From contig NC_081361.1 in NCBI RefSeq assembly GCF_030684315.1, forward strand, positions 51,753,553 through 51,817,552: a stretch of DNA of 64,000 bases. The letters run 5' to 3'. This document shows, one piece after another, positions 2,425 to 50,698 of the stretch. The stretch is from Stegostoma tigrinum (Eukaryota). The number at the start of each line of letters is the position of its first letter. The stretch's first letter is position 1. The translations under genes and the position numbers were made by a program. Below the pieces are notes generated by a model that saw only the letters and a list, made by a program, of their open reading frames with translations, was not told where the DNA came from and ran no database searches.

Positions 2425-3892
2425 ATCATAGAATCACAGAATCTCTAGCGTGTGGTAGCAAGCCATTCAGCCCATCAAAGTCACACCACCCTCTAAAGAA
2501 CATCTCATCCAAACTCTGCCCACCACCCTATCCCTGTAAGATAACACAGCAGGAAAGCAGCATCTCAGGAGCACAAAAGCTGACATTTCCGGCCTAGGCC
2601 CTTCATCAGAAAAGGGGGATGGGGTGAGGGTTCTGGAATAAGTAGGGAACAAGGGGGAGCAGACTGAAGATAGATAGAGGAGAGGATAGGTGCAGAGGAG
2701 AGTACGGGTGGGGAGGTAGGGAGGGGACAGGTCAGTCCGGGGAGGACGGACAGGTCAACGGGGCGAGATGAGGTTAGTAGGTAGGAAATGGAGGTGTGGC
2801 TTGAGATGGGAGGAGGTTATAGGTGAGAGGAAGAACAGGTTAGGCAGGCGGAGATGAGCTGGGCTGGTTTTAGGATGCAGTGGGGGGAGGGGAGATTTTT
2901 GAAGCTGGTGAAATCCACATTGATACCATTGGGCTGCAGGGTTCCCTAGTGGAAAATGAGTTGCTGTTTCTGCAACCTACAGGTGGCATCATTATGGCAC
3001 TGCAGGAGGCCCAGGATGGACATGTCGTCTAAGGAATGGGAAGGGGAGCTGAAATGGTTCGCGACTGGGAGGTGCAGTTGTTTTCTGCGAACCGAGCGTA
3101 GGTGTTCTGCAAAGCGGTCCCCAAGCCTCCGCTTGGTTTCCCCAATGTAGAGGAAGCCACACCGGGTACAGTGGAGACAATGTACCACATTGGCAGATGT
3201 GCAGGTGAACCTCTGCTTGATATGGAAAGTCATCTTGGGGCCTGGGATGGGATTGAGGGAGGTGGTGTGGGTGCAGGTGTAGCACTTCCTGTGGTTGCAG
3301 GGGAAAATGCCAGGTGTGGTGGGATTGGAGGGGAGTGTGGAGCGGACAAGGGAGTTGCGGAGAGAGTGGTCTCTCCAGAGGGCAGCCAAGGGTGGGGTGG
3401 GAAAAATGCCTTTGGTGGTGGGGTCGGATTGTAGATGGCGGAAGTGTCAGAGGATGATGCGTTGTATGCGGAAGTTGGTGAGGTGGTATGTGAGGACTAG
3501 GGGGATTCTCTTTGGGTGGTTATTACGAGGGCAGGGTGTGAGAGACGAGGTGCGGGATATGCAGGAGACACGGTCGAGGGCGTTCTCGAGCACTGCAGGG
3601 GTAAGTAGAGGCCTTTGAAGAACGAGGACATCTGGGATGAGCGGGAGTGAAATGCCTCATCCTGGGAGCAGATGCGGCGAAGGCGAAGGAATGGGGAACA
3701 GGGGATGGAATTTTTGCAGGGAAGTGGGTGGGAGGAGGTGTATTCCAGGTAGCTATGGGAGTCAGTGGGCTTGAAATGGACATCAATTTGTAGGTGGTTG
3801 CCATCCCTGTAACCCTGCATTTCCCATGGCTAATCCACCCAGTCTGAAAATCCATGGACACGATCAGCAAATTAGCATGGCCAATCCACCTA
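2425..3892 (-). mobile_element. HE1-like SINE split by a Penelope insertion (SINE parts 2425-2539 and 3803-3892)
   Basis: (ATTCTATG)-type tail at 2425-2445; sequence on both sides of the insertion matches the SINE at 26855-27088. Confidence 0.65.
2540..3802 (-). mobile_element. 5'-truncated Penelope-like retroelement (RT C-terminus + GIY-YIG endonuclease), frameshifted
   Basis: ORFs DVHFKPTDSHSYLEYTSSHP and CTSANVVHCLHCTRCGFLYIGETKRRLGDRFAEH...VANHF; 10-bp TSD ATCCCTGTAA at 2530-2539 and 3803-3812. Confidence 0.9.
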
Positions 3893-4993: not shown

Positions 4994-6388
4994 AGAGATA
5001 ATGGGAACTGCAGATGCTGGAGAATCCAAGATAATAAAGTGTGAAGCTGGATGAACACAGCAGGCCAAGCAGCATCTCAGGAGCACAAAAGCTGACGTTT
5101 CGGGCCGAGACCCTTCATCAGAGAGGGGGATGGGGTGAGGGTTCTGGAATAAATAGGGAGAGAGGGGGAGGTGGATCGAAGATTGAGAAAAGAAGATAGG
5201 TGGAGAGGAGAGTATAGGTGGGTAGGTAGGGAGGGGATAAGTCAGTCCAGGGAAGACGGACAGGTCAAGGAGGTGGGATGAGGTTAATTGGTAGGAAACA
5301 GAGGTGCGGCTTGGGGTGGGAGGAAGGGATGGGTGAGAGGAAGAACAGGTTAGGGAGGCAGAGACAGGCTGGACTGGTTTTGGGATGCAGTAGGGGGAGG
5401 GGATGAGCTGCGCTGGTTGTGTGATGCAGTGAGGGGAGGGGACGAGCTGGGCTGGTTTTGGGATGCAGTGGGGCAGGGGGAGATTTTGAAGCTGATGAAG
5501 TCCACATTGATACCATTGGGCTGCAAGGTTCCCAAGCGGAATATGAGTTGCTGTTCCTGCAACCTTCGGGTGGCATCATTGTGGCACTGCAGGAGGCCCA
5601 TGATGGACATGTCATCTAAAGAATGAGAGGGGGAGTTGAAATGGTTAGCGACTGGGAGGTGCAGTTGTTTACTGTGAACCGAGCGGAGGTCCCCAAGCCT
5701 CCGCTTGGTTTCCCCAATGTAGAGGAAGCCACACCGGGTACAATGGATACAGTATACCACATTGGCAGATGTGCAGGTGAACCTCTGCTTAATATGGAAA
5801 GTCATCTTAGGGCCTGGGATAGGGGTGAGGGAGGAGGTGTGGGGGCAAGTGTAGCATTTCCTGCGGTTGCAGGGGAAGGTGCTGGGTGTGGTGGGGTTGG
5901 AGGGCAGTGTGGAGCTAACAAGGGAGTCACGGAGAGAGTGGTCTCTCCAGAAAGCAGACAAGGGTGGGGATGGAAAAATGTCTTGGGTGGTGGTGTCAGA
6001 TTGTAGATGGCGGAGGTGTCGGAGGATGATGCGTCGTATACGGAGGTTGGTGGGGTGGTGTGTGAGAACGAGGGGGATCCTCTTTGGGCGGTTGTGGCAG
6101 GGGCGGGGTGTGAGGGATGTGTTGCGGGAAATGCGGGAGACGTGGTCAAGGGCGTTCTCGACCACTGTGGGGGGAAAGTTGCGGCTCTTGAAGAACTTGG
6201 ACGTCTGGGATGTGCGGGAGTGGAATGCCTCATCGTGAGAGCAGATGCGGCGGAGGCGGAGGAATTGGGAATAGGGGATGGAATTTTTGCAGGAGGGTGG
6301 GTGGGAGGAGGTGTATCCTAGGTAGCTGTGGGAGTCAGTGGGCTTGAAATGGACATCAGTTACAAGCTGATTGCCTGAGATGGAGACG
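4994..6388 (-). mobile_element. 5'-truncated Penelope-like retroelement (RT C-terminus + GIY-YIG endonuclease)
   Basis: ORF 5350-6165 NVVYCIHCTRCGFLYIGETKRRLG...EQQLIFRLGTLQPNGIN; TSD ACGAGTGAAG at 4984-4993 and 6389-6398. Confidence 0.92.
5094..5121 (-). ncRNA. Minimal hammerhead-ribozyme motif in the Penelope terminus
   Basis: Minus strand reads CTGATGA A GGGTCTCGGCCC GAAAC GTC. Confidence 0.6.
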
Positions 6389-6915
6389 ACGAGTGAAGCT
6401 TGTGTTTACTTGGTGTCTTTCACAACCTTAGAATGTCCCAAGTGTTTTACAGTCAACTGACTACATTTAAAGCGTAGGAAATTCCAAGATATTGAACCAG
6501 CAATGATGAAGGAATGACTATCAACGCGCAATTACAGATGACGTGATTTGGAACTGAATGTGGAAGTGTTGGCGTTCCCTTAACATTGTTGCCCTTGTCC
6601 TTGGTGATAGACGTTGCAGTGGAGGTTTGTTTACTGTATCTACACATAGTGGACTTTTTTTTAAATATCACGTTTGACGTTAAACAAAGAATTAAGGCTT
6701 TTGCTTCTATGAATAATTTCGTCGGGCAATCCTACAATTTCCAAACATGGATACCGAAATGAGGAATGAGCATTGATTGATGTGTCGACCGCCCCAGTGA
6801 GCTGCGAGACAGACACGCTTCGGTATCCGCTCCAACCCTCCCCCCCACCACAAAACCCACCTCCCCCAGGGCTGACCCTTTGTCCCCAGCGGGTCAGGGT
6901 GAAAGCAAAGTCCTT

Positions 6916-10540: not shown

Positions 10541-10812
10541 AAACAGCACCATCTGCATGTCCTTAGCCCAGTTTAAATAGTGGGAATCCAAGAGAACCAC
10601 TTTGCACCAAAATCATTGCTGAAAGGTTCAGAATCAACAAATGCAACCAGCATAGTGATAAATCTCTAAGTTTGTAGAAATTTTAAAGAAATTAGCAGAA
10701 ACTTGCAGATTCAGAGACAACTTAAATGATGCTCAGAGACAGACTAGTGTGTGGTTAAGATGTGAAGAAATCTAGAAGACATCACTGACGGAAAGGAACC
10801 TATACTTGAAAG

Positions 10813-10900
10813 GTCAAGCAGCGTCACAGGAGCAGGAGTTATCATCCAGCTCTACACCTTGTTACCTCAGATTCTCCAGCATCTGCAGTTCCTACTATCT
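10813..10900. mobile_element. Short Penelope-terminus insertion with an inverted 5' piece
   Basis: 13-bp TSD CTATACTTGAAAG at 10800-10812 and 10901-10913. Confidence 0.75.
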
Positions 10901-12602
10901 CTATACTTGAAAGCACTGGAAATAGCAGTCTCAATTAAACTTACAGCCAAAGAAGTTTAATGCTAATCTCGAGGATGAGACCTCGCAAAATGGCAACCGA
11001 GAGGATTCACAGAATGTAGCTGAGAGATAAATACCAGAACTGTGACTGGTGAGGAAAACAGGTCACAGCAACAAATTACAGATATAAATGTATGCAGAAA
11101 CGGCAGCAATAAAAGGGCACATTAATCAGATGTGCTTGATGAAGGAACATGAACACATAGAAAAAGTACAGAAACTGAAGAGTGGAAAGAATCTACAAAA
11201 AGGCTACTTAGAAAAGCCGAGACTGTCAGTTTGAATGTTATTACGTGTACTGGCCATTGCCAACAACAAACTGACTCTGAGTCACTCCCTTATTGAATGG
11301 TAAACCTGTAGGAATTGAGGTGGATACTGGAACAGCAGTTTCATTGATACCTGAATGTGTGTCTCAGAAGTACATTGCATTGTAACCCTCAAAAATTGTA
11401 CTATGAATGTACACAGGTGTAGTGATGCCTTCAAGAGATTGTATCAATGTGAATGTTCAGGTAAACGATTAGTCTGAAGATACACATTGTCAAAGGAAAC
11501 CTTCCAGCTTTATCGGGAAGAATGTAGTTGAAGAAAGTCAAATTTACTGGGCTGAAATAAATCGCTTGTCAGACTCTGAGAATGATTAGAAATTCTAAAG
11601 AAAAGATGCTTTTAATCGGGATCTAGGAAGCAAAGATCTTGTCAAATTGGAAATCAAAGATCAGAATGTGGCGAGGCCAGATCACTGCCATATGTAATTA
11701 AAGCAAAGATCAAGGCAGAAATAGCAAGGCTGATTAAGATGGGAGTCCTTGAACATGTAAAATGAGAATAACTGGATCACAGCTATTGTATTAGAGACGA
11801 AGAAGGATAAATCAGTTCGCATCTGTGGTGATTTTAAACTCACTATTAATTTGGTGCTGTGTAATGAGCGGTATCCTTTGCCTTTCATTGATGACCTATT
11901 TGCTGGACTAGATGAGGTCAGCTTTTCAGTAAAATTGACCTTAGTCAAGCCTATCTCCAGACAAATGTAGACTGAGTAATAGAGCTACTTGACAATTGTA
12001 ATGGAAGCAGTTATTTTGCGCATGTTACCCAATGGTGAAGTGAAGCCAATAGCTTTTATATCAACACTATTAAACAAAGCAGAAATGAACTACCCAACCA
12101 TACAGAAAGAAACTACAGGAATCATTTTTGGCATTAGGTGTTCCATCAATACCTTTACAGCCAGGAATCTGCGCTATTAATAGACCACTGACCACAATAT
12201 TTGGACCTCATACAAGGATACCTTCTCTAGTAGCAAGCAGAGATTCTTGCCATCAGCTCACACTTACACAATTGTTTCTCATAGCAGTTGATGCACATAT
12301 AAAATGGTCTGGGTAGTCATTATGAAGACAACATGGGGGGAGATCCTTGTGAAGTTCAGTCATCCAGAACAACTTGTTAGAAATAATGATCCATAGTTTA
12401 TATGACAACAGTTTACAGTCTATTGAATGAAGAGCAGAAATCAACCTATCAATCAGCTCCTTATCACATAGCTACAAATGGTTTGATACAAAGGTTTGTT
12501 CAGAAAACAAAACATTCCTGAAAGGTAATTTAAGAACGAGGATCACAAAAGACTGAGCTAATTTTTGCTAACATTCTGGAACACAATCCACTTGACTCAA
12601 TG

Positions 12603-12766
12603 ATAACAAGGTGTAGAGTTGGATGAACACAGCAGGCCAAGCAGCATCAGAGAAGCAGGAAGGCTGATGTTTCGGGCCTAGACCGTTCTTCAGAAAAATG
12701 CTCATCCAGCTTCACACTGTGTTATCTCAGATTCTCCAGCATCTGCAGTTCCTACTACCTCTGAAA
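12603..12766. mobile_element. Inverted (two-arm) Penelope-terminus insertion
   Basis: 15-bp TSD CCACTTGACTCAATG at 12588-12602 and 12767-12781; left arm on -, right arm on +. Confidence 0.8.
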
Positions 12767-13383
12767 CCACTTGACTCAATGTTCTCCTGCCTTGCTCACG
12801 GTTAAGCGTCAGTTGTACGCAGTATTTGATTTGCTGTAACTGCCTGAGACAAAAGACGTTGTTGACACACAACAACAGAATCAAATTTGTCAACATGAGA
12901 GCAAGGCAACCGCTATGTTTTCGAAAAGGTCAGTGAGTGGCATGGAAATGTACCGCTGGTGACAAGTGGGTACCAGCCATGATTGTGGCATAGACTGGCC
13001 TGGACTCATAAATCATACAGGTGGGAGATGTAGTTCTATTGAGAAGACATGCAGATCAACTCTTGGCAACCTGAACAAACACCAGAAACATTAATTGAAG
13101 ATCCAGAAATAACTGTACCACAGAGACCTGGGTATACCTGAGGACAGAAGAGTAACTGGGGTACCTGACAAAGACAGTACCTTAGAGGAGAACACCACTA
13201 CGATGTCTGAACATTGAGACACTTCAGGAATTGACAATAACTGATGATGTTCCCAGTACACCCAAGACACAGAGATTAGAAGCGACGAGCAAAGTAGATG
13301 CTTCAGACGCACTTACAGCCACAAAGATTCAGCATCCTCCAGAACATTTAGCCTACTAACCATGTTATAAATGATTGTAGGCA

Positions 13384-14705
13384 GAGTCATAGAGTTACAT
13401 AGCATGGAAACAAACGCTTCATGCCAACTTTGTGCGAACCAGACATCCTAAACTGATCTAGTCCCATTTGCCAGCATTTGGCCCATACCCCTCTAAACAC
13501 TTCCTCCGCCCTCCAGACCAACCTCAGGGAATCTCTCTCCCACTGCAATCCATCTTTGGTCCGCCTCCCTCTCTCCCCATCCCCCTCTCTGAAGGAGGGT
13601 CTAGGCCCGAAACGTCAGCTTTTGTGCTCCTGAGATGCTGCTTGGCCTGCTGTGTTCATCCAGCTTCACACCTTGTTATCTCGGATTCTCCAGCATCTGC
13701 AGTTCCCATTATCTCTGATCACAGTTTTAACCTCACTGCAAAGCCTCTTCCAGGGATGCCTAACCTGAAGAAGTTACCCTCCTCCCTCTGGACCAACCTC
13801 AGGGAATTTCTCTCCCACTGCAACTCTCTATCCATCTTCGGTCCACATCCCCCTCTGCCTATTTCAGAACCCTCTCCCCATCCCCCTGTCTGATGAAGGG
13901 TCTAGGCCTGAAATGTCAGCTTTTGTGCTCCTGAGATGCTGCTTGGCCTGCTGTGTTCATTCAGCTTCACACTTTGTTACTTCCTATTCATGTACCTATC
14001 TGGATGTCTCTTAAATGTTGCAACTGTACCCACTTCCACCACCTCCTCTGGCAGTTTATTCTATACATGCACAACCCTCTGCATGAGAAGGTTGTCCTGC
14101 CCTCCCCCCCACTGACCCCTTTTAAATCTTTCTGGCCACACCTTATACCCATGCCCTCTAGTTTTAGACTCCCCTCCCCTGGGAAAAAGACCTTGGTATT
14201 TCAGCCTATCGATGCCCCTCATGATTTTAAAAACCAATATAAGGTCACCCTTCAGCCTTTGGCATTCCAGGGAAAAATGCCCTGGCCTATTCAGCCTCTC
14301 CCCATAACTCAAACCCTATAGTCCTGGCAACATCCTTGCAAATCTTTTCTGAAGCAAGATCTTTCCTATAGCACGAAGATGGGAATTGAATGCAGTATTC
14401 TAAAAATGGCCTCACTGATGTCCTGTAGAGGAGAAACATGATCTCCCAACTCCAATACTCAATGCACTGACTCTAAAAGGCATATGTGCCAAACACATAC
14501 TTCACAACCCTGTCTACCTAAAACTCCACCTTCACGGAACTATGCACATGCATCCTTAGGACCCTTTGTTTGGCATCGCTCCCCAGGGCCCTATTAGCTG
14601 TACAACTCCTGCCCTGATTTGCCTTGCCAAAAATGCAACACCTCACATTTACTGAAATTAAACATCATCTGCTACTCCTCAGCCCTCTGGCCAATCTGTT
14701 CAAGG
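13384..14705 (-). mobile_element. CR1 LINE 3' fragment inserted in the Gypsy remnant
   Basis: ORF 14061-14312 [35 protein letters not shown]...SKTRGH. Confidence 0.85.
13506..13978 (+). mobile_element. Tandem Penelope-terminus units (~300 nt period, two hammerhead motifs) inserted in CR1
   Basis: Motifs start at 13589 and 13890; ACTTCCT duplicated at 13499-13505 and 13979-13985. Confidence 0.75.
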
Positions 14706-15340: not shown

Positions 15341-16829
15341 TAGGAGAATTGGAGAAAGTGGTTGAATTGAACATTTGAAGTGAAAGCTAAGGCTTTCACC
15401 AGTGCCTGCAGATTTCACCAAATTTCAAAGGCATAACAAATCACCAGATGTTTCTAATAACTCAGCAAGTAACTGAAATTAATCAGCAACTAATCTGTGA
15501 TTGGTTGATGATCCCTTTAAATAGCATTTGTTGCTGTTGAATATATGTTCAGCTGTGCAAGGTCAAAAGAGGCATTAGTTGGACATTGAAGCTAAAATGG
15601 CACCATGGGAGTCAACTTAGTATTTCTGGCTTTACAATCCGTCTATTCAACACATACCTGGAGCACACTTCTGCACAAGGACCACTGAGCTCACCAAAAG
15701 AGTGTTCATTGTGGCCCATATCAAAAGTGTTTGCACACAGCACAGGTGCCTTTTTTTGGTGCCCATAACACTGGAAATATACGTGGTACAGAGTGGAATT
15801 TGGCAGTTCATGTCATCAGGAAGGGACATTGATGAGGAAAAGCTAAATAACTATGTTTTGATGGTATTATAGAGCATTCACATAGTGAGACATTTGGAAT
15901 GGATTCAAAAAATCTAGGTTTGTCTTAGACTCATTGAACTCAGGAAGTGTATGAGCCGACTGCAAACATCAGATCCAAATTAGTTTGTTGGGACAAAGTC
16001 TAACAGAATAAATTAATTTATTGGCAGGAACCTGAACATTAAATATGTCATAGCTTGTCCTTTTACCTGGATTCCAATCTGGTGTTGCAGTTCAGAGGAA
16101 TGTATTCTCTGTGAGTCATGTCTCAGGCTGAAATTGATTTAGTAGTTATCAGTAATTGGTATCAGAAAGGGATAGGCAGGAAGAAAGTAAGACAAGGACA
16201 ATCCTACATTCCATTCAGCCTTGGTGATTGTGCTTGAATAGTAGGTGTGCACTGCAAATGCTTACATAACCATACAAGGTTAGCCCTCATTGCGAACGCA
16301 ATTAATATTCCGCACATACATTAGATACTGATTGTAACTATGCAAACCCTGGAAGAAATACTTCTGAATTATGTTGAAAGCAGATTAGTTTTAATTGATG
16401 CAACTGTATAAACACCATCACAGTGCTATGGTCTGGAATCACATATAGGCCAGACAAGTTAAGGACGGTACATTTTCATCCCTGAAGGACATTAGTGAAT
16501 CAGACAGGTTTTTACAATAATCAAGAATATTTTCATGGTTACCAGCTTTCAAACACAGTTATTCATAAATTTATATTTGATCAATTATCATCGTAGGATT
16601 TGAACCTGAAAAACAAACAAAAAACAAAAGTTGCTGGAGAAACTTAACTGGTCTGGCAGCATCTGTGCAGAGAAAACTGAGTTAACATTGAGCCCTTCTT
16701 CAGAACTGATGGTAGCTTGGTAAAGTTGGTATTTATGTTGATTATGGGGTGGGACAGATGAGTACTGGAGAAAAGGAGTGAAGAGATAGTTGGAACCCAG
16801 AGAGAGAGCGCGAGGTCAGCAGACAAACT

Positions 16830-16921
16830 CTCTGATGAAGGGTCTAGACCCGAAACGTCAGCTTTTGTGCTCCTGAGATGCTGCTTGGCCTGCTGCGTTC
16901 ATCCAGCTTCACACTTTATTA
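16830..16921 (+). mobile_element. Solo ~92-bp hammerhead-bearing mini-element
   Basis: 14-bp TSD TCAGCAGACAAACT at 16816-16829 and 16922-16935. Confidence 0.85.
16832..16859 (+). ncRNA. Minimal hammerhead-ribozyme motif
   Basis: CTGATGA A GGGTCTAGACCC GAAAC GTC; stem II is a perfect palindrome in this copy. Confidence 0.65.
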
Positions 16922-18499
16922 TCAGCAGACAAACTGTTGGCCGGAGCAAGTATTACAACAGAATCTAAATAGATGCTGATGGGAAGATGTATAGTTAAAA
17001 GTTAGTTGACTATGCTGAAAGCAACCTACAGGTCTTGGGGTGTGGAGTGGTGATAGACATGGAATGAGATGTTCATGCTATATAATTGTTGAACTCGAAT
17101 GTTGAGTCTTGAAGGAACTGAGGACCCCAAGTAAATGAGATGGTGTTTCCCTGGCTTGCATTGAGCCTTGCTGTAGCACTGCAGTAGGCCTGAGGCAAAA
17201 ATATTAGCTTGGGAATATGGCAGTGCATTCAAGTGGCAGGCAACTGAGAGCTCGGAGTCATTTTTGTGGACAGAGACCAGGTAGTCCACAAAGCAGTTAC
17301 CAGACTGTGTTTCATCTCCCCCAGTGTAGAGGAGACCACACTGTGAGCAGCAAACACAGAGATTAGATTGAGTGAGAGTGGAGGCAAATTATTGCCTCAC
17401 TTGGAAGGTGAGTCTGGGACTTTGATGGTGAGGAAGGAAGAAACAAATGGGAAAGTGTTGCACTTTTTGTGATTGCATGAGAAGATGCTGTGGGGTGTTT
17501 GGAATGGAGGAGGAATGGACCATCATGTCCCAAAGAAATGGTCCCTGCAGAAGGCTGACAAAGAAGCAGTACCGAGCATGTCATTGATGTACTAGAGAAA
17601 GAGCTGTGGGGAGGGACCCGATAGGATTGAAACAAGGAATGTTTAACATATCCCACAAAGAGAAAGGCATAACTGAGGGTCATGTCAGTACCCATTACCA
17701 CACCTTTAATCTGAAGAAAGTGGGAGGAGTTAAAGGAGATGATGTTCGAGTGAGGATGAACCAGGAAAATTGGGTAGAGGAGGATGAGAATGTCCCTGGA
17801 GCACAGCCTGGCCTTTGAGTCTAGTGATAAAAATGTCTGTTTGTTTTAATTCCTGTCATCTTAACATATTTAAAGAGAGAGAAAGAAATGCATTTATTAA
17901 AATCATTTGCGTTCTTACTATGCCTGAAGATGATCACAATTCAGTTTCTGGGCAGTTGGCTTCTTTCCAATTTTCTCTGCTCTCTCTGAAGGAACTGATT
18001 CTTATGCAACTGTCTTTGAAGTATTTTCTCATGGGAAGTGAAAATTTATTGCCCTTTCCTAATTGCCCTCAAGAAAATAGTGAGTCACCTTCTTACTCCT
18101 TTGCAGTCCACATTAGGTTAGTACACCCACACTGTTATTACGAAGGGAGTTCCAGAGTTTTGCTGCACAGATGATTGCTGCATTCTAGTACCTCAACTAG
18201 GCAGTCAGTCATTCTTTAAGCATGATTTGAAACAATGAGCAACAGAAGGCAGTCAGAGCTGGAACCCTCTCGCATTTATGTTGAAATTTATCTCAGTTTT
18301 GAAACTTGTGTGCATTATATTAATTAGGTAAATTAATTTGAGTTAATAACTTATGGTAAAATATTGCTTGTGGAATCCATTGTGTTCAATATACTGCACC
18401 ATCAATTCCTCTCAGCTACAACTTAGTCAATTCAGACTGATCAGAGCTTTACCAATTGAAAAGTAGAGATGAATATGACTGAAGGAGGGGATAGTTTCC

Positions 18500-20400: not shown

Positions 20401-21608
20401 CTGCTCTCAACCTTTTCTTATTCACTTATGGGACATAAGCCAGCATTCACTGCCTACCCCTAACTGACCTTGAGACAGTGGTGATGAGCTGCCCTCTTGA
20501 ATCACTGCAATCCATGTGCTGTAAGTAGACCCAAAATGCCATTAGGGTACCCCAGTTCTTTGACACAGCGGTATCGTTCCAAGTCTGTACAGAGGTGGCT
20601 TGGAGAGAAATTTGTAGATGGTGGAATTCCAATGTACTTGCTGACCTTTTCCTTCTAAGTTGGAATTGGTTTTGGGTTTAGAAGATGCTGTCTAGGAAAC
20701 AATGTGGAAACCCTGGAAAGGAGTTTGATTTATTTCATCCAAATTTTCCTCAGGTTTTCCAACATAGTTATGGAAGGATATCAGGTGAATCCCTCTATGT
20801 ATTCCCCCTTAGGGTCACTGGTTTTTAAATGGAGTGCCTTAATTTTCAACACTTCATCAGCAAAAACAATTTGTGCAAAGCAGCTTCAGACCAATTTAGT
20901 TCATCATTTTGAACACTTCCCTTTTAAGAACCAGAACAAACCTTTATTTTTCTCATCATTTAGTTTTATGAAGTCAGGCAAAATGTTGTTAAGTACTTTG
21001 TATTTGCTTTCACCGAGACGGGAGTGTGCTTCCCATAGACTAGTTTGAATTGTAGGCTACAACCTTTTCTCAAGAAGGTTCAGTATTGAATGCTTGGGTG
21101 TGGTTGCAGGACGTAATTAAGAATCATTGTACAGCAAAATTACATTCTATATATAGAAGTGATGTGATATTTTAATCACATTGAGTAATATGCACTATCA
21201 GTGTCCATTTAGAAAGCTTTAATTAAGGATTTGAGTCAAATTATAAGCACTGTTGGTTACACACCCTCTGATTCAAGACAGACATGTGCAATCCAAAATA
21301 ATTAACTGTTTTGATCTTATTGAGGTCCTTACATCAGATCATATTATGTGATTTGGATTATGGGAAACAAGGTGCATATAAGAATTCAGAACAGTCCCTT
21401 TGTGCGAAATTGGGATGGGAAAATACATTTTTTAAATTCACGGTCCTGTTCTTTTCTGAAGAAACTTGCTAGATTTGTGCAAGTAGTCAGTCTTTTGTAA
21501 GCTGAAATAGTTAGGTCCTGACATGAACCTGACGCATGTGAGCCAAGAATTTATTGGGAGTGGGTGCCAGAATGGGGGCAACCTGGAGGTCAACTGAAAC
21601 GGTTAGAA

Positions 21609-21816
21609 CAAATACAGAAGTTACTGGAAAAGCTCAGCAGATCTGGCAGCATCTGTGGAGGAGAAAACAGTTAACGTTTCGGGTCAGGGTCATCAGGCCC
21701 GAAATGTTAGCTCTGTTTTCTCCTCGACAGATGCTGCCAGACCTGCTGAGCTTTTCCAGTAACTTCTGTTTTTGTTCCTGATGTACAGGATCCGCAGTTC
21801 TTTTGGTTTTGCATTT
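21609..21816. mobile_element. Palindromic (inverted two-arm) terminus insertion of the second Penelope family
   Basis: CAGAAGTTACTGGAAAAGCTCAGCAG... mirrored by ...CTGCTGAGCTTTTCCAGTAACTTCTG; TSD TGAAA(C/G)GGTTAGAA at 21595-21608 and 21817-21830. Confidence 0.75.
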
Positions 21817-23519
21817 TGAAAGGGTTAGAATCTGTGATCTCAACTGAATTGTAGCAATTAAAGTTGACTTTCAGACTTCATATTTTAAAGTGGGATAGTA
21901 GGCATGATACATGCCCAAATGAGGTAATTTCAATTCTATTAAAAGGAACAACCCACAAATAAAGAAGTTGCTGGAAAAGCTCAGCAGGTCCGGCAGCATC
22001 TGTGAAGAAAAATCAGGACAATGTTAACTGAGTTATTTTGTAAAGCAACTTTGTTTTTGTTCCTGATTTACAGTTTTCAGTTTTTATACGCACAATTAGA
22101 AACTGGAGATGCTCAGAATGGATGGGGGACACAACAAAAGCAGTAGCCAGATTAAATGTTGCCTTGCTGGGATTACTGCAGGGTGCAGACAGAAGGAAAA
22201 AACACTTTGTCTAGTAACAGGAGAAGGAAACTGGTGGCTCCCTCAAGGCTTGCGCGGTTAGAACTAGCTCCGGAGGTGGTTAGCTGGAATGTTTTATCCA
22301 GATCAAAGCAATATTATAGGGAGTGGTTGAAAAGCTTAACCAGGTCACGATAAAGCGAGCATCTCTGGTAGTTCACCTAAAATGTACGGTTTAAGCCCTC
22401 CATTTCACTATTGTTTACTAAGCATTCTTCACATCAATCCTATTAACTAGGAAAAATTCACTTCCTATACATTCCACCACTTCCAAATTTATCCATCCAC
22501 TATCGACGATCACCCAAACTTTTACAGAATGCTACCTACTGGTTTGTAGTCACCACCACCAAATGGACTGCATTTACTGGCTGAACATTTCAACTTACTC
22601 CAAACTAATTCACAGATATGTTTAAACCCTTGTAAGAGAGGGCAAAACACGAGATAGTAGATGGACTGCCACAAATTGTTCAGCCTACAGATGCAGGGCA
22701 GGAACCCCAGGTTACCAGTAAAGAAAATCACATCTGAGACATTCAAGCTCTGACTTCACTGCAAAAAAATGAACAATGAGAAACTACCGTGACTAAATCA
22801 TACCTTTTCCATTTGTTTTGCAGAGTCTTCATGCATAAAGCAAATGCCACAGCTCATCCATGACCACACTTCCTCAGAGGACATTTAGACCGTTGCACAA
22901 CTTAGCATGAATTGGTAAATATTCAACATTTTAATTTGATCCAGTTGAACAGTTAGTTATTCAGGGTTTTCACTTGGTGTTTCACTCAATTCTATGCAGA
23001 ATATAAATGCTGGTCAACAGAAGTATGCTTCACCTTCATCCTTCTCATTCTCTAAATTCTCATGCATCAATGAGTGATGAAACTTTCTCCCCGCTACTTC
23101 GTGTGCAATCATCTCCGCTGCTAATACTGTACAGAATGCAACACACTTATTGTGGAAACCCTAGACATGCACCTTCAGCACTATTTAGGCTTCTGAAGCA
23201 CATATTCAACATTCCAATGGCTTGCCGGAAGACATGCATGGTGTGATAAGGGTCTTAAATTCACAGCTTCAATCTTATTGATAGAATTCCTCAGGCCACG
23301 GTTGAAGTTGATATCCTTTGTCTCCAATCAGCAGTTCCTGGAACAAAAAGGTCCAGGACATTAGGACCACTACAACATAAAAGCATCATTGCAGTTCCCA
23401 AGAAACTGTGGAAAATGATGGCATAATCAACCTTGTTGGATATGATAGTTTGAGAAGGGGCAAAAGCAGATCTTATCTGGAGAGGTTTGTAACTCTGAAG
23501 TTATTTCAATGATGTAAGA

Positions 23520-23890
23520 GAGAAGACTGAAAAACCTCCCAATACACCTTACAACACATGAAGTACTTTTGAAATGTAGTCGCTGTTGTAATATAAGAAA
23601 TACGGTAGGGAATGTGTACACCAAAAGCTCTCACAAACAGCAGTATGATGGCGACAAGAGAATCTATATCAGCAATTCTGAATGAAGGGTAAATATTAGT
23701 CAGGGCACTGAGAATAACTCTCTTGCTATTTTTCAAAAATAATGCCGTGGGATCTTTAATGTCCAACTAGGATATGGATAAAATCTCAAACCGCACAGCA
23801 CTCCCTTAGTATTACACAGGAGTAGAGCATCAGACAACATATTTGCACGCAAGCCTCTAGAACGAGAGCTGAATCCAGCTGAGCAACAGC
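23520..23890 (-). mobile_element. Ancient SINE, Deu/AmnSINE-like
   Basis: Minus strand has CATTTCAAAAGTACTTCATGTG...TAAGGTGTATTGGGA, resembling the Deu-SINE 3' part; recognised from memory only. Confidence 0.45.
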
Positions 23891-25395
23891 AATCAGTACT
23901 GGAGCTGGGAAATGGTATAATGAACACAAACCTCAGCTTACAGAAGTTGAAGACAGGCTAGGAACTGTAGAGAATGATGAAATGGTTACAGTAGAAGCAG
24001 CTATTCAGAGCTAGTGCCCTTGTCCACTCTCTGCATGAGCAACTCAGCTAGGCCTATTCACTGAATCTTCCCTTTGGTTCTGCAAATTATTTCTCTTCAG
24101 ATAATTATCCTTGGAAAGCACAAACAGATCAGTCTTCATCAGACTCCCAGCTGATGCAGTCCTGATCCTAATTGTTTCAGTTTTCTTCCAGTCACCAATA
24201 GTTTTTATTCTGCCATTCAGCTTAATTCAGTGACTTCTATTTTACAACAATTGTGCCAATAAAGCAGTTTTGATCTGCTGTCTAGACTCACTATTTTCAA
24301 CACAATCAAATCTCAAAAATAATTGAAAGAAACTTTTTTTAATGCATGAGCTGATATTACTCGTTTTGAGGAAAAGGGGAGATTGACTAAAGAGAGGGAA
24401 TCATTGATGATATTTGTTGAATGGGAACGAGATCAAGATGGAAGTGGGTTTGCAGCCAAATTGAGTTTGGAAAGACCATTTTATTCTTTCACGAGGCATG
24501 GATGTTTTATGTATTACTGTAAGTTATGTGCAGAACAAGATGTAGTGGCTCGGGCAGTATTTATTGCCTATCCTTAATTGCTAATTGCATCCACATTGCT
24601 ATGTCTGGATTCACATGTAAGCCAGACTAGGTCAGGATGATCATGTCCTTTAGGGAAGGAAATCTAAGTAATCAAATGGGATTTTATGACAATTGATAGT
24701 GGTTAGCTTTTTAAACCTTTTCTTAATTTAAGATTCAAATTTCACACAATGGTGTAATTCAATCCCAAGTCCCCAGAACAATAGCCTGGATTTTAAATTA
24801 CTCGTCTAGAGACATTACCAATATTCAATTAACTCCTGGATATTCAAGGCAAGGCTGGCAGAGGAAGTGGAGAGGGGGCCAAATAGGGTAAGTGCCAAGT
24901 AAAAGTGTAAATCAGCTACGACAGTATCTAGTATTGTTATGTTATCCCAAAAGTAGCGCTGAATCGTAAAGCAGTCTTGCTTATATGATAGCACTATATG
25001 AGACACTTAAACACTGAACAAGTGAGCAAGCCCAACATTATTTCAAAAATTAGAGGATTCTTGGCAAAGAAACAGGATCAAAAATTGAAAAATATAAATA
25101 GCTGATTAGAGTCTGAACATCTTTGAACAGGACTCAAAACAAAGCTCAGCCCCAGAAGGGTTTTCCTGATGTATTCACACATTGTAGGGTCCATTAAATG
25201 ACTGTTTAGTAGTTGGTTGCTCTACATGTGGGTCAAAGTAAAGCCTGTTATAAAACAACATGTAATTATGCAAAGCGTGTTTTTCTATGCAAAATGTACC
25301 AATAAACTGTGAAACCAAGTGTTGACATGTTCAGATAAAGTCCTTGTATACTCCTTAGAGGCTTTATTTTGAAAACAGGGAATGATAATTTCTGA

Positions 25396-25694
25396 GATAA
25401 TAAAATGTGAGGCTGGATGAACACAGCAGGCCAAGCAGCATCTCAGGAGCACAAAAGCTGACGTTTCGGGCCTAGACCCTTCATCAGAGGCTTTACGATT
25501 CAGCACTACTTTTGGGATAACATAACAATACTAGATACTGTCGTAGCTGATTTACACTTTTACTTGCTCTGACGAAGGGTCTAGGCCCGAAACGTCAGCT
25601 TTTGTGCTCCTGAGATGCTGCTTGGCCTGCTGTGTTCATCCAGCCTCACATTTTATTATCTTGGAATTCTCCAGCACCTGCAGTTCCCATTATC
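25396..25694. mobile_element. Inverted pair of hammerhead-bearing Penelope termini enclosing a 77-bp captured genomic segment
   Basis: Arms 25395-25489 (-) and 25567-25694 (+); 15-bp TSD AATGATAATTTCTGA at 25381-25395 and 25695-25709; spacer is the reverse complement of 24896-24972. Confidence 0.9.
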
Positions 25695-26854
25695 AATGAT
25701 AATTTCTGAACATGTTTTTAAGTGACTTAAAGGAAATTTGAGAGTCTGGTACGGGGACCCCCTTTACTCAGACTGATTGAAAGCCTGCGCCAAAGTTTTA
25801 GTATTACTCCTTCAGGCCATATTGTAACAATGTTAAGCCCACACAATGTGAAGCTTTGTTACAAAACTCTGCTCATTCATCCATATTAATATAATGCCTG
25901 ATTTCTGTAGTAAAGAAAACAAGTCAACACTTTAAATGATAAGTACATGCCTACCTAGTAGAAAATGAGTAATCACATTTGGGGACTAAAAGAACGATAG
26001 AAGGGATTTTTAGAAGCTTGTTGAGGTGGAGTAGGAAGTGAATGAGGCGATGTGATGAGAATTTTGTGGGAGAATACATAGGATGGGGCTATTGACATTG
26101 AAGAAATCAAAAGATTTTTCTCTTGACTAACTGGCAAATCAGAACATTCGATTGCTATGGAAACCTTTCTTTAAAGTCCACTGAAAATCAGTGGAATGAA
26201 AAGCAGGCAGGTTTTATAAAAGAGTAGACAAACGGAGTCACCAAGGATTTAAAGAAAATCTACCCTACGTCGAATTGCAAACATCACAACCAAGGTTCAA
26301 AGATAAGCACAATTTCACAGATGAGGTTATTATTTTGGCTGTAGATTTGCATAGTTGATTGAGAGGGTCAAGCAACTTAAAAATTAAAAATCCTACTTAC
26401 TCCACACTTTGCTCCTTTCTTATTTCTCTCAAAATTGACTGGTGTTCTCACGTCTCATCTGAACCTTTTTGGTAACTCCTAGATGAAAACTCTTCAAAGC
26501 AGCTTCACTGAAATGGCCATAAACAATATCCAAAAGAGATGCTTGACCATTTATCACTTCTCCAAATGGTAAAGCCAATGCGCTGCTACAACTTCCATTA
26601 ATTTTGTACATTTCACACTGACCAAGGATAGGAACCTTTTAATCCATACATCTCAGATCTTTACCTGACAAAATCAGAGCCAAAAGGTTGGATGAAAATG
26701 AATGCTCCAAAAGATGGAATTATTCACCCTCAAATACAGCACACAAAAAAGGCCCTTCAACTCAATGAGTCTGCACTGTTCAAAAAACAAGCAACTATCT
26801 ATTCTAATCACATTTCTCAGCACTTGGCTCAAGGCCTTGCTGGTCTCGACGTAC

Positions 26855-27088
26855 GGGCAGCATGCTGGCTCAGTGGTTAGCACTCTGCGTCCTCTGATCT
26901 GCTCTCAGTCCAAAGACATGCAGGATTGGTGGATTGCTCATAGTGTCCAGGAATGTGCAGGCTAGTTGGGAATGAAGGGTTATAGGGAGAGGGTAGGGAG
27001 ACAGTCTGGGTGGGATGCTCTTTGGAGTGTCGGTGTGGACTCTGTGGGTCAAATTGCCAGCTTCCACACTGTAGGAATTCTATGATTG
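26855..27088 (+). mobile_element. HE1-like tRNA-derived SINE (internally deleted)
   Basis: Starts GGGCAGCATGCTGGCTCAGTGGTTAGCACT (A box); ends CACACTGTAGGAATTCTATGATT. Confidence 0.75.
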
Positions 27089-27089
27089 A

Positions 27090-28650
27090 CATTGCAAGTG
27101 TACATTTAAATAATTCCTAAATATTATGAGGGTTTCTGCCTCTTTCAACCCTGCAGGCAACGAGTTTCAGCCTCCCAAAACTTCTGGATGAAAAAATGTT
27201 TCCTCACATTCCTTCTAAACCTCTTGCCTCTTCCCTAAAATCTACAGCCCTTGGTCATCCATCCCTCCAACAAGGAAGACAGTTGCATTATATCTACCCT
27301 ATCTACGCCCACAATGATTTTCATATTTCAATCATGTCCTTCAATCTTCTGCACTCCAAAGAAAAGAACGTCAGTCTATCAAATTCCTCAAGACAAACTC
27401 TTCAGCCCCAGCAACATCCTGGTAAATACCCTCTGCACCCTTTCCAATGCAATCACATCCCTTCTGTAAACTGCATTCCAGAACTTCACAATATTTTACA
27501 CCTAACCAATATTTTATACAGTTCCAGTATAACTTCCCCGCTCTGAAAGTTAATGCATTGGCTAATAAAAGGTAAGTATTCCAATGCTTTCTTAGCCACT
27601 ATTTTCCTGTTCCATTATTTTAAGGGACAGGGAAACTCGCACACCAAGGACTCTGATTCGTGGTGTTTCCCAGGGACCTATGGCTCATTCTGCTTTCCCC
27701 TGCTTTGTTGATCCTGCCCAAGTGCATTATCGCATGCTTATATGGATTGAATTTCATTTTCTCCTGATGTTGCTACAGTTTATTTCAATTATAATTTCAT
27801 GGCGATCTCTGCTAACCGATCCAACTGTCAATACTTTCTTCCCATTTGGACACAAAATGAAATCACGCTAATATCAGAAAGCAACAATGCCAAAATGTCC
27901 AAACATATCACCAGCACAACTTACTGGAAAGTAAACTCAAACTAGACATTTGGGTAATACTTTGGTTATTTGAACCAAGGAGTCCCAAGTTAAACTGATA
28001 CTCCACTAAGTCAGTGAACTAATAATACATTAATGACTGCCATGTGCAAAATTATTGCAGAGAAGACAGGTTGAAAAGAACATTTGATTATATGGGATTA
28101 GAGGCTTTATAAGGACATAGAAATTACAATAAACCTGTAGCAAATACTGGTTTGGGCTCAATTTGAGTATTCTCCCGAGTTCTGGGAGCAAACACTAAGA
28201 AGGTTGTGAAAGCAGTGCAGAAAAGATGGGAGAAGATTCAGAAGAATGGTTTCCAGAGTTGAGGAACATCAGTTAGATTGACAGATTGGAGCAACTCAGC
28301 TGTTCCTCGAGATAGAAGATGAAAAGGAGATTTTGTAGAGACACTCAAAGCCATGAGGGGGCCTGGATAAACAGGAATAAATGGTTCAATTTGACAGAAG
28401 GACCAAGTAGAGAAGAGAGATTTTACTGATTGGCAAAGGAAACAATGACAATGAGGATTTGTTTTGTGCAGGTAGTTAGTATCTGAATGCATTAAACAAC
28501 AGTGTGGTGCAGATTCAGTTGAGGTCTTTGAAAGATAATAAAATTATCAGAAGAGAAATATACAGATTATTGGGAAAAGAAAGTCACTTTGTAGAAAGCC
28601 ACCATGGACACAATGGACTTAATGTCTTCCTCTGCTCTGTAATTCTACAA
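27090..28650. mobile_element. Degraded CR1 fragments (about 27090-27760 on -, 27900-28650 on +)
   Basis: Decayed CR1 ORF2 C-terminal and 3'UTR sequence similar to younger copies in the window. Confidence 0.5.
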
Positions 28651-34111: not shown

Positions 34112-34237
34112 CTATAATATAATGCAAGGCTTCTTATCCTTAAAGGGGTTTTCTGAAGTTGGAATGCCCATGAGCAGAGGGTCACTTTTGGCATGCTCCT
34201 CACAGTAGCGGACAAGATCTGCTGAAGCCTTTGAAAC
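34112..34237 (-). CDS. GNG12: G protein gamma-12, last coding exon
   Basis: cag|[41 protein letters not shown]; CaaX box CIIL; 126 nt. Confidence 0.93.
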
Positions 34238-34435
34238 CTGCCAAAGGAGGGGGAAAAAAGAATGAAGAATAAGTTTAAATTTGAGGATGTGCATAAGGAT
34301 ATAGGATGTAACTATTATCAGACAGTACAACAGTCTTACTAAAGTATCTTTCAAAAATGACATCTAATGCACATAACAGTTATTGTACAGAAAATGCAAG
34401 AGTTTACACAATAAGTCAGCCTGTGTCTAGAAGGT

Positions 34436-34656
34436 ATCAGAGATAATGGGAACTGCAGATGCTGGAGATTCCAAGATAATAAAATGCGAGGCTGGATGAA
34501 CACAGCAGGCCAAGCAGCATCTCAGGAGCACAAAAGCTGACGTTTCGGGCCTAGACCCTTCATCAGATGAAGGGTCTAGGCCCGAAACGTCAGCTTTTGT
34601 GCTCCTGAGATGCTGCTTGGCCTGCTGTGTTCATCCAGCCTCGCATTTTATTATCT
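34436..34656. mobile_element. Palindromic hammerhead-bearing Penelope-terminus insertion in the GNG12 intron
   Basis: 91-bp perfect inverted repeat 34474-34564 / 34566-34656; TSD (CT)GTGTCTAGAAGGT at 34421-34435 and 34655-34669. Confidence 0.9.
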
Positions 34657-37600
34657 GTGTCTAGAAGGTTATCGGTTTAGATGATGTTCTTGGTCATGTG
34701 GCCTGATTCTATCAAAAAAGTCAAAGTACCAGACCCTTGACTGTTTACTATTTTAGGAACAGATTGTTTATGTTCGCGTCTTCTTTCAAATTCTTACTCT
34801 TATTCTTAAAACATACCTACTATTTACTAAAGATGTTGAGTAGTCTTGGCATTTCATGGGCATTGCACCTCAAAGCACTAAGTTCTTGCTTAACTGTACT
34901 CCATTTAGTGATGTTTTGCTTTAAATTGTGCGAAGTTACCAGAAGCCAAAATCTATTTCAGCTTCCTGGAATTCATTTTAAATGTTGTTTACTGCATAAC
35001 CTGACTGTGGTATGAACACACTCTCTTCTGCCAGTACCAGTGGCGAGAAAGAAGAGTTCACATTTCAGGTTCAGTAACCATTCCCCAATTGAGTTCAGCA
35101 ATTTCTGTTTTTGTTTCTGATTTCCAGCATCGACAGTTCTTTCAATTTCCATTAAGCTGCAAGTAACACCTTTGAAGGACCAGATAATAAGCATCAAGCA
35201 CCTTCCCTTGGATATTCAATAGTGTATTATGATTGAATCCCCAAACATCACCATTATGAATAACATCACCGACAGCAAATCTAACTGGACAGGGCACAAA
35301 AATATTGGGGCTACAAGAACAGATCAGAGGCTGGGAATTCACAGATCAAATCAGACTAAGAGGAGAATCCCCATTCCAGAACAAGGTTTCCAGGTGACGT
35401 TCCCTCTCTCTGGATGTTTTACAATGTCTGAAGCACAAACTCCAGCTTATTAACTCTCATCTTCAGCTCCTTGAGCTATTGACATATGTGCTTAAGATCA
35501 TATTGGTGTCTATGAGCATTAACATCTGGCAGAGTCATCACCTGTCCTGCCACATTATTTTAAACAAAATTTTATGAAATGCCCCCAGAGACTTGATCGC
35601 GTTTATATTCTTACTATTTCTGTCAATGTTTTATTTACCATGATTGAAATTACCCAGTTTAATTAATAACGAAATACTAGTCAATTTTCTACCTACTTCC
35701 TTGTAGTATCACACTTTGTATTCAGCAAGAAAAAAACCACTGAGTTCATCTGGTTCTTTGCTCTTTAATATCCCTACTCTGGTCTTGGCCTTTCTGGTTG
35801 CTCACAGACTCTAGACTACACATCCATCCCTATCTTTCCTACATTAAGCAAAGAATACATTGGTTATTCCACACCACTACCATGTAAAATTCAGCTTGGT
35901 CATGCCACTAACTGTCCAATCAAAATAATTAATCCATGGGATCAGGGAAAACCTAGCAATTTTGGACCTTCTCTTGTTGCCTCAAGGGAGTAACGGGAGA
36001 ACCTTTTCTTCAATCACAGTGATGCATATGGTGAATATGCTCCCTCAACGCTGTAGAGTGTTCAGGGTTTTAGTCCAGTGACGATTTAGAGACTCGCGAC
36101 ATTTGAGCAAGTCTGAAAGTTGTGATTTAGTGGGGAATTTAGAGATGATGGTGCTCAGTGCACCCACAAATTTTGTCTTGAGTAGTGCAGTTTGTGGGAT
36201 CTGGAGGTTCTGCCAAAGGATCCTTAGGTATCCTGTGGATAGTACAGTTCATGCATAGGTAAGTGGAGGTGGTAGCAATTAAGCAGATTATTTTGTCCTG
36301 GACAATGATGAGCATCTCAAGTGCTGCAGTTTGACCTTGGCAGGTAAATGACAGAAGAGGTGTCAAGTGAGTGGCTCAGTTTTGAAGTCAAATCAAATCT
36401 AAAACATGAAAACACTGGGGCAGCTACCAACGTACATGTGGAATGTGACCCATGTCGGAGAATGAAGTTTGCAATAAACTCACATGAAGCTGGTTAGGAA
36501 AACCAGGAAAATGCTGTGCAGACTCTTTGGTGCTCAGATTCTCAGCTAAATTATATTGAGATGACAGAAACCCCAGCACTTCCCATTTTCAGACAATATT
36601 TACAGCATTAAAGCAGAATCTCATGTTAATTATATAATTGGAGAAGGCGGGGAAAGCGCGCTACGGGTCAGGGTGATGCTGAGTTTTAATTAGCAGATAT
36701 GGAAACTAGCTAAAAGCAATGGAACCCAATATTAAATGATCTTTCAGTGGGATATTATGTACAGTGGGATTTCCTTGCTAAAACTAGCACTAGGCCACAC
36801 ATATATCACATTCACCAGCAAAAAAAATTCCAATCTTGTAATTTTAATTATTGCATACACAACACTAATGTTGTTAAATTTTATATTCAGAATCAGTGCA
36901 ATGAATGTTTCAAAGTTGCCAATTATTGCCACAACAGAATAGAAGCATAGCTTCCCTGACACAGTAATAACTTTAACAGTAGTATAAATGCCCTCAATTA
37001 AGTGGCACTCGAAGCTGATTGGATTATTTTCAATAGTCACTCTAAAGCTGCAACTGAGAAAAAAGGACAAATGCACTTTCCAAACAATGCCTCCTGCATG
37101 GCTATAGATTAAAATGAAACAGACCATAAAACACTCGAACAAACTAGATTTGAGTCTGTTATGTGCAGAGTTAGCTAATCCTGTCCAATGCAACAACTAA
37201 TTTCAATTTTTTTTGGGGTGGCGCAAATTAGCTAGAATAAAACAACTTGCTGTTACTTGTACTCTAATCTACTCACAAGGAATGGTCGTTTGGAGATGGA
37301 TACCAGTGGAACCATATTATGTACCAAGATCTTAAAGAGAGGAGCAAAAAGCATAAAACTTGGCAAAAGTAAAAAGGAGCTTGAAAAAAACTGCCACATC
37401 CATTGGTTCTATCAGCTTAGTACAATTAAAGTACTAAATAAATGAACAATTACCTCTGTCAGTTGGCAAAAACCTTAAATGTGCAAGTTTGCGGTTAAAA
37501 TGTAAACAAGGTTCTCAGTTGTGCTCAAGCACCCAACTGACTCACCACTGCAATGCAACTTCTCAGTATCATCAGGTTAACTTGTTTGAAGCAAGAAAGA

Positions 37601-40199: not shown

Positions 40200-40545
40200 T
40201 AGGTCATGGCCTAGTGGTATTATTGCTGGGCCTTCAAGAGGCTCAAGTTCTATTTTGGGAACCCAGGTTCGAATGCTGCCATGGCAGATGGTGGAATTTT
40301 AGTTCAATAAAAGCAAAAATCTGGAATTAAGACTCTAATGATGACAATTGTTGATTGTCAGACAATTCATCTGGTTCACTTATGTCCTTTAGAAAAGAAA
40401 CTGCCAGGCTTACCCGTCTGTCTACATGACTCCAGACCCATAGCAACGTGACTGACTCTTAACTGCCCTCTGGGAAAACTCCCCTCATGGACAATAAACG
40501 CTGGCTGACCAAGCAACATCTTCATCCCATGAACGAATAAAAAAA
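40200..40545 (+). mobile_element. tRNA-derived SINE; related copies on - at ~16430-16610, ~24550-24820, ~51715-52050
   Basis: A box TGGCCTAGTGG, B box GGTTCGAATGC, A-rich end CCCATGAACGAATAAAAAA. Confidence 0.7.
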
Positions 40546-49561: not shown

Positions 49562-50698
49562 CCGCAATTCCCACCCCCCACCCCCGCAATGGTCGAGAAT
49601 GCCCTTGACCGCGTCTCCCGCAACACATCCCTCACACACCGCCCCCAGAGGATCCCCTCGTTCTCACATACCACCCCACCAACCTCCGCATACAACGCAT
49701 CATCCTCCGACACTTCCACCATCTACAATCCGACCCCACCACCCAAGACATTTTTCCATCCCCACCCTTGTCTGCCTTCCGGAGAGACCACTCTCTCCGT
49801 GACTCCCTTGTTCGCTCCACACTGCCCTCCGACCCCACCACACCCGGCACCTTCCCCTGCAAACGCAGGAAATGCTACACTTGCCCCCACACCTCCTCCC
49901 TCACCCCTATCCCAGGCCCCAAGATGACTTTCCACATTAAGCAGAGGTTCACCTGCATATCTGCCAATGTGGTATACTGCATCCACAATGTGGTATACTG
50001 CATCCACGGTGTGGCTTCCTCTACATTGGGGAAACCAAGTGGAGGCTTGGGGACCGCTTTGCAGAACACCTCCGCTCGGTTTGCAACAAACAACTGCACC
50101 TCCCAGTCCCAAACCATTTTAACTCCCCCTCCCATCCCTCAGACTACACGTCCATCATGGGCCTCCTGCAGTGCCACAATGATGCCACCTGAAGGTTGCA
50201 AGAACAGCAACTCAGATTCCGCTTGGGAACCCTGCAGCCCAATGTTATCAATGTGGACTTCATAAGCTTCAAAAATCTCCCCTTCCCCTACTGCATCCCA
50301 AAACCAGCCCAGCTCGTCCCCTCCCCCAACTGCATCCCAAAACCAGCCCAGCCTGTTTCCGCTTCCCTAACCTGTTCTTCCTCTCACCCATCCCTTCCTC
50401 CCACCTCAAGCCGCACCTCCATTTCCTACCTACCACCTCGTCCCGCCTCGACCTGTCCGTCTTCCCTGGACTGACCTATCCCCTCCCTACCTCCTCACCT
50501 ATACTCTCCTCTCTACCTACCTGCTTTTCTCTCCATCTTCGGTCTGCCTCCCCCCCCCCCCCCCCGGAGGGGGGGGGGGGGGGTCGAGGCCCAAAATGTC
50601 AGCTTTTGTGCTCCTGAGATGCTGCTTGGCCTGCTGTGTTCATCCAGCTCCACACTTTGTTATCTTGGATTCTCCAGCATCTGCAGTTCCCATTATCA
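49562..50698 (+). mobile_element. 5'-truncated Penelope-like retroelement (GIY-YIG region), frameshifted
   Basis: ORF 49768-50265 AFRRDHSLRDSLVRS...CKRRKCYTC...NVVYCIH; 21-bp internal tandem duplication 49965-50006; TSD CTGCAGGA at 49554-49561 and 50699-50706. Confidence 0.88.

Follow-up and report, generated by a model that had tools for sequence, protein, structure and literature searches.

Penelope-like elements (PLEs) of the EN+ type form head-to-head insertions in which inverted, 5'-truncated pLTR arms with hammerhead motifs lie inside a target-site duplication (TSD) and one end carries a tail of 30–40 bp, as described in PMC8557442, PMC3846280 and PMC11167929. How these inverted insertions are completed is debated. 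Self-priming from palindromes at the junction was proposed in PMC3846280, whereas the one in vitro study, PMC11167929, shows extension of both strands. That work used the purified PLE protein of an anole, a predicted dimer. The protein cut and extended both strands, and its two RNA start sites delimit the tail; the later insertion steps are left unvalidated there. For Adineta vaga, PMC3846280 describes unrelated sequence between solo pLTRs inside a TSD.

Short local genomic copies inside a TSD are also known from L1, as fold-back or templated insertions (PMC10191854; bioRxiv 10.1101/2024.08.27.596794; PMC11702581). Upstream inverted duplications of about 52–220 bp are given in PMC10191854 as 3 plus 1 events (0.3% and 0.1%). 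The long-read study (bioRxiv 10.1101/2024.08.27.596794) reports 22 templated insertions, usually <250 bp and from within 15 bp, and the cell study (PMC11702581) reports 3. Break repair by SD-MMEJ, as described in PMC5728401, uses snap-back (inverted) or loop-out (direct) templating and leaves apparent blunt joins with junction-spanning repeats near the break.

The focal insertion lies in a window of 64 kb, the whole stretch of DNA that was analysed. Its parts and the donor of its central segment (the cargo) are as follows.

24896..24972, + strand: donor of the cargo, a flank that is single-copy in the window apart from the cargo
25381..25395, + strand: left copy of the TSD, 15 bp, AATGATAATTTCTGA
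25396..25489, - strand: short (left) arm without tail, 94 bp, covering the element 3' end between -2 and +91/92 (counted from hammerhead C3)
25460..25487, - strand: minimal hammerhead motif of the left arm
25490..25566, + strand: cargo, 77 bp, inverted copy of 24896-24972 (76/77)
25567..25694, + strand: long (right) arm, 128 bp of the element 3' end, from -2 to +124, with a 34-bp tail
25569..25596, + strand: minimal hammerhead motif of the right arm, with C at N7, alone among the 12 matches in the window
25661-25694: tail of the long arm, 34 bp, the length difference between the focal arms
25695..25709, + strand: right copy of the TSD, 15 bp, AATGATAATTTCTGA

The order at this site is thus TSD, short arm, inverted local copy, long arm and TSD. 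The two TSD copies are identical (15/15) and are the only occurrences of AATGATAATTTCTGA in the 64-kb window. The initial annotation had placed a 15-bp TSD around two inverted Penelope termini. Its hammerhead coordinates were also exact. It had described two arms of about 95 bp; this holds for the left arm (94 bp), but the right arm measures 128 bp since it carries the tail. Over their shared 94 positions (25396-25489 and 25567-25660) the arms are reverse complements with a single difference, 25483/25573, which is position N7 of the hammerhead core. They are arranged head to head and both stop at the same element base (-2).

Alignment of the 77 bp between the arms to the reverse complement of 24896-24972 gave 76/77 identities (BLAST E 1e-31), as had been claimed. 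The mismatch, A at 25505 against G at 24957, is a CpG transition, with the CpG kept in the donor and decayed in the copy. The donor lies upstream of the insertion and ends 408 bp from the TSD, close to the estimated 410 bp, and its apparent uniqueness was borne out within the window, where no donor 12-mer has a further copy besides the cargo. An origin of the cargo as a normal part of the element was ruled out, as other family copies carry a different, C-rich element sequence upstream of -2; the comparison supports a cargo that is not part of the element. We conclude with high confidence that the cargo was copied from the local flank.

It is very unlikely that the 77-mer is a dispersed repeat, was brought along by the source element, or was copied from the loop into 24896, so that its nearness would be incidental. 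A third copy is absent from the 64 kb, the match stops exactly at both arm boundaries, the donor has kept its CpG and has no TSD, and other copies of the element have the C-rich sequence at this place. What speaks for such an origin is that the donor holds 3 CpG in 77 nt, a count reached by 24 of 507 tiles. The CpG observed/expected ratio of the window is 0.28, and the CpG content of the donor may be due to chance.

Several identities of the donor were tried and rejected. It is not a small RNA, tRNA or structured RNA by the searches used, which gave no overlapping Rfam match, no tRNA and fold z-scores of -1.0 and -0.25. It does not lie in a known repeat: tblastn with 120 listed PLE homologs gave no match in 23001-28000, a CR1-like ORF matched only near 27700, and sensitive blastn found old repeat pieces only to the left of 24823, outside the donor. 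Nor does it appear to be a separate insertion, as it is not flanked by a TSD (best flanking repeat 4 nt).

Inverted PLE structures are described in PMC8557442 as troublesome for assemblies, and an assembly or chimeric-read artefact must be weighed for this reason. We regard it as extremely improbable: the clean TSD, the family-typical 34-bp asymmetry, the single arm difference and the CpG-type difference of the cargo are unlike what fold-back reads produce.

In its arms, tail, TSD and hammerhead motifs the focal insertion resembles the EN+ PLE head-to-head insertions, but the inverted junctions described in PMC8557442, PMC3846280 and PMC11167929 carry palindromes or overlaps, whereas the focal arms are separated by 77 bp whose local donor can be traced. 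A junction palindrome of the self-priming type is absent from the spacer. The likeness to the L1 cases is that a non-element insert within the TSD duplicates nearby DNA and leaves the donor intact. It differs from those in the sources cited above in the class of retroelement, in the position of the patch between two element 3' ends and in the distance of the donor, 408 bp as against typically within 15 bp in the long-read study. In the Adineta vaga case unrelated sequence likewise lies between the arms, but it is read in PMC3846280 as mobilisation in trans with no local inverted donor described, while the focal cargo comes from the adjacent flank and no onward movement was seen. A literature search, whose poor coverage of subscription papers makes this a weak negative, found no PLE head-to-head junction for which a local inverted donor had been mapped. 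The class of event is known from L1; the mapped local inverted donor at the central join of a PLE is a new variation, seen once.

The family to which the arms belong is represented in the window by longer copies that share the same terminus.

2543-3802, - strand: longer family copy, decayed frame
4995..6388, - strand: long 5'-truncated copy used as reference, with decayed RT-thumb, Cys-rich linker and GIY-YIG-like frame
49581-50698, + strand: longer family copy, decayed frame

All long copies in the window are 5'-truncated. The GIY-YIG-like frame 5620-6402 (-) reads VYCIHCTRCGFLYIGET, and the EN is preceded by CNRRKCYTCPH. The homolog search with the element protein returned 843 proteins among 1052 candidates, with E-values down to 4e-89; several of them bear PF01541, PF00078 or the name GIY-YIG domain protein, and the best named homologs, from stingray and bamboo shark, were 53–60% identical, so that the host is probably a cartilaginous fish. 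Direct Pfam scans of the decayed element frames gave no match. The focal insertion itself has the inverted terminal arms (94/128 bp), the 30–40 bp tail on one end (34 bp) and the TSD (15 bp) that mark EN+ PLEs, and as judged from sequence the parent family of the arms can be assigned to this type. The CNRRKCYTCPH linker would fit the Neptune/Nematis clades of PMC8557442, which we take as a lead only.

The terminal hammerhead-like motif was matched 12 times in the window against 0 expected. It has the CUGANGA and GAAA cores, a UH site, an extra base between 9 and 10.1, a G10.1-C11.1 closing pair and a palindromic 15.2-16.2 (helix III). These features are those of the PLE minimal hammerhead as described in PMC4209133, against which the motif was compared. 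Helix I is shorter than the 4–5 bp of this type, with 2 bp in the element context (CU/AG), or 3 bp in the right arm when a cargo base is counted; a 2-bp helix I is described in PMC4209133 for D. virilis Penelope. Together, motif features and family anatomy support the earlier reading of the arms as PLE termini with minimal hammerhead motifs. Rfam gave no hammerhead match at the gathering cut-off or at E<10. A match to MIR6136 at 25457-25599 (46.6 bits, far under the 99-bit cut-off) was rejected as a reflection of the hairpin. The consensus stem of MIR6136 has a CCGAAAC-like motif, and an inverted hammerhead repeat might be the origin of that family.

Mapping of all family copies in the window onto the longest one gave 21 arms. 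Their 3' ends, counted from hammerhead C3, fall at +89 to +92 in seven (including the arm at 12594, which was placed by eye since BLAST over-extends there), at +124 to +127 in nine and elsewhere in five. Five head-to-head insertions, at 10813, 12603, the focal site, 34436 and 44596, are flanked by TSDs of 10–15 bp. All four standard ones pair a short with a long end, the insertion at 10813 having an atypical internal piece. Only the focal insertion (1/5) contains a spacer such as described here. No local filler was found in the five head-to-head centres tested, where no non-element 10- or 11-mer matched within 3 kb; hits of this length in two centre regions matched element copies. By these controls, and in agreement with PMC8557442 and PMC3846280, head-to-head arms with a single tail are ordinary for PLEs. 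The 34-bp tail corresponds to the one described for PLEs, and only the cargo stands out.

A sister insertion of similar build served as an internal control.

34421..34669, strand not applicable: sister insertion, 15-bp TSD, long and short arms directly joined, no cargo

Its arms are identical over the 89/89 positions compared and form a near-perfect palindrome of 183 bp with one unpaired central base. Both arms carry a private variant that is absent from the focal arms, which is compatible with one template or with copying between arms. The centre reads TCATC-A-GATGA, which would be what two identical cDNA ends leave when they anneal across one A·A mismatch; a one-base hairpin loop seems a less likely origin.

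Other copies were noted in passing. A solo short arm without tail at 16816-16935 has a TSD of 13–14 bp and starts at the same -2/-4 position. The older head-to-head insertions at 10800-10913 and 12588-12781 have TSDs of 13 and 15 bp, and the former contains an inverted internal piece where a normal short arm is expected. A second family has a palindromic insertion at 21606-21777 with its own hammerhead-like motif (21696, -) and no spacer, as well as a partial copy at 21946-22016. At 13407-13979 there is a partial element tandem in which the tail continues, twice, into an apparent following 5' region. In one long copy the hammerhead start is replaced by a run of C and a subsequent run of G (50546-50590), possibly a small fold-back or a sequencing error.

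The preferred explanation for the focal site is a single PLE insertion whose central join was patched by templated synthesis, involving two cDNAs, opposite nicks and host-type joining; we consider its chances about even. In this scheme the endonuclease would first make a staggered break with 15-nt 3' overhangs, as the TSD suggests. Reverse transcription would then begin from both 3' ends, with the short start site used for one cDNA and the long (tail) site for the other, a step derived from the anatomy and the published biochemistry. At the staggered cut, the top strand would have primed the cDNA seen as the left arm and the bottom strand the one seen as the right arm, and both cDNAs would have stopped at one and the same element base, immediately upstream of the hammerhead. 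The identical cDNA ends would not have been directly joined, unlike in the sister copy. Instead, the left flank, unwound or resected, would have served as template for one of the ends, which probably reached it by way of AGAGGCTTTA or the 25238 site and gained an inverted copy of 77 nt from 24896-24972. Synthesis-dependent alternative end-joining by the host is the most likely way in which the ends would finally have been joined and the gaps filled.

Several observations count for this explanation. The TSD is perfect and unique in the window, and the sister junction TCATC-A-GATGA agrees with two identical cDNA ends. The two classes of 3' ends, which take in 16 of the 21 arms, match the two RT start sites and the extension of both strands described in vitro in PMC11167929. 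The local, inverted and upstream nature of the cargo counts through its likeness to the L1 fold-back duplications of PMC10191854. Since the anole protein extends both nicked strands and short and long ends are paired in 4/4 cases, the second arm is more plausibly the product of a separate priming event. This bears on the earlier proposal that the polymerase switched from the element template to host DNA and back: copying of the cargo from the neighbouring flank stands, but a single polymerase going out and back, though possible, is not favoured, as the 4/4 short/long pairs favour second priming.

At the junctions, direct microhomology of the arm with cargo or donor was found on neither side. 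Two short repeats span the junction of left arm and cargo.

25238..25246, - strand: 9-mer AGGCTTTAC (2+7), a possible stepping-stone template in the orientation of the donor
25357..25366, + strand: 10-mer AGAGGCTTTA (4+6), a possible bridging template

The 10-mer recurs 15–24 bp upstream of the TSD and occurs also at 28100. Random junctions matched this in 3/3000, 10/3000 and 39/3000 cases within 50, 150 and 400 bp, and in 21/20000 within 50 bp in a second run, giving a nominal p of about 0.001–0.013 in a post hoc test run over two junctions and several window sizes. For the 9-mer, 493/20000 random junctions reached at least 9 within 250 bp. At the right junction nothing rose above chance, the best score of 7 being reached by 37% of random junctions. 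Either left site would allow a possible two-step path with 6–7 nt of homology into the donor. The junction-spanning 10-mer near the target counts for the preferred explanation as the footprint predicted by SD-MMEJ in PMC5728401. The templates described in PMC5728401 lie within tens of bases and the inserts are one to tens of bases long, whereas the cargo measures 77 bp, its donor is 408 bp distant, and a repeat was found at one junction of the two. Against the explanation count the single event, the right junction at chance level, and the post hoc nature of the 10-mer and its further occurrence at 28100, as does the distance of 408 bp compared with about 30 bp for SD-MMEJ (PMC5728401) and 15 bp typical of L1 templated insertions. 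The blunt junctions, which fit RT jumping equally well, also weigh against it.

RT jumping is closest to the polymerase switch of the initial annotation. The PLE RT would have made the patch during integration by running off the element RNA at -2, jumping without homology to a local single-stranded DNA flap or nascent RNA, copying 77 nt, and then joining or jumping to the second cDNA. The lack of microhomology at both junctions agrees with this, as do the end of both focal arms at the same base and the 5' ends of 7 of the 21 arms between -4 and +3 by BLAST, a pattern that run-off would give. In PMC12203849 the R2 RT is described as jumping templates without sequence similarity and copying single-stranded DNA, and in PMC10191854 one L1 event co-inserted local pre-mRNA, but no template jumping by a PLE was found in the main text of PMC11167929. 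The focal insertion lies between convergent genes, a GADD45-family gene (exon on + near 7.5–8 kb, PF01248) and a G-protein gamma gene (exon on - at 34115-34237, PF00631), about 9 kb past the nearer stop, so that read-through RNA is possible on either strand. However, no splice, poly(A) or small-RNA feature was found in the donor, it lies ~9 kb past the nearest stop codon, and the junction-spanning 10-mer by the target would be a coincidence. On balance we consider RT jumping somewhat unlikely.

The clustered arm 5' ends, a few bases upstream of the hammerhead core, are at 12693, 16830, 25489, 25567, 34563-34567 and 49268. Hammerhead cleavage was rejected as their cause, as the cleavage site is at about +28 and the ends are at -2. 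Candidate causes of the -2 ends are run-off at the RNA 5' end and a stop at the C-rich tract.

Perfect palindromes are fragile at their centre. A spacer-free palindrome at the focal site could have broken there later and been mended with a templated local insertion, by ordinary break repair and not by transposition. Spacer-free head-to-head insertions are the rule in the window (4/5), and divergence cannot order the events, with 1/94 differences between arms, 1/77 between cargo and donor and 0/15 in the TSD (pooled 2/186 = 1.1%, 95% interval 0.13–3.8%). However, neither arm has lost a base relative to the -2 end of the solo arm at 16830, although trimming would be expected, and the sister palindrome is still intact. 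Such a later repair appears unlikely. An origin of the cargo in the same event as the insertion, by host-type joining or RT jumping, is fairly probable. Within such an event, the sequence is compatible with extension of either cDNA, with a DNA or a local RNA template, and with a PLE or host polymerase; the copying enzyme may have been a host repair polymerase.

A non-palindromic 77-bp spacer between arms that share their end base is hard to obtain by simple fold-back and easy from two cDNAs, which bears on the debate over self-priming (PMC3846280) and extension of both strands (PMC11167929). Because the donor can be mapped, the distance, side and orientation of such spacers are measurable genome-wide. 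A broader reading is that central joins regularly pick up inverted local DNA by RT jumping, with a dimer priming both nicks, run-off at a defined RNA 5' end and remobilisation of some arm-cargo-arm units. If regular capture and remobilisation were true, the spacers of a cartilaginous-fish genome would preserve an extensive fossil record able to tell dual priming from self-priming, and short host sequences could be shuffled by this route. We consider this joint reading quite improbable, and as it stands the focal case is one junction accident, probably a one-off. The arm-cargo-arm cassette of the initial annotation, and the remobilisation for which it had suggested a check, found no support in the window, as the cargo sequence occurs just twice in 64 kb and one of five TSD-flanked head-to-head insertions has a spacer.

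RNA across the insertion is predicted to fold into a 94-bp stem (-204 kcal/mol, z -24). Because this stem would bury both hammerheads, the insertion is probably inert. The head-to-head arms provide one sense motif per strand, so there is no same-sense partner for a hammerhead dimer, and no sign of function or onward movement was seen within the 64-kb window. Elsewhere in the window, a 732-aa open frame at 56453-58651 (-) is one that we take to resemble a CR1/L2-type LINE ORF2. At 40203-40286 (+) ARAGORN predicted a tRNA-Leu(CAA) that Rfam did not report at gathering score, and which may be a SINE head or a pseudogene.
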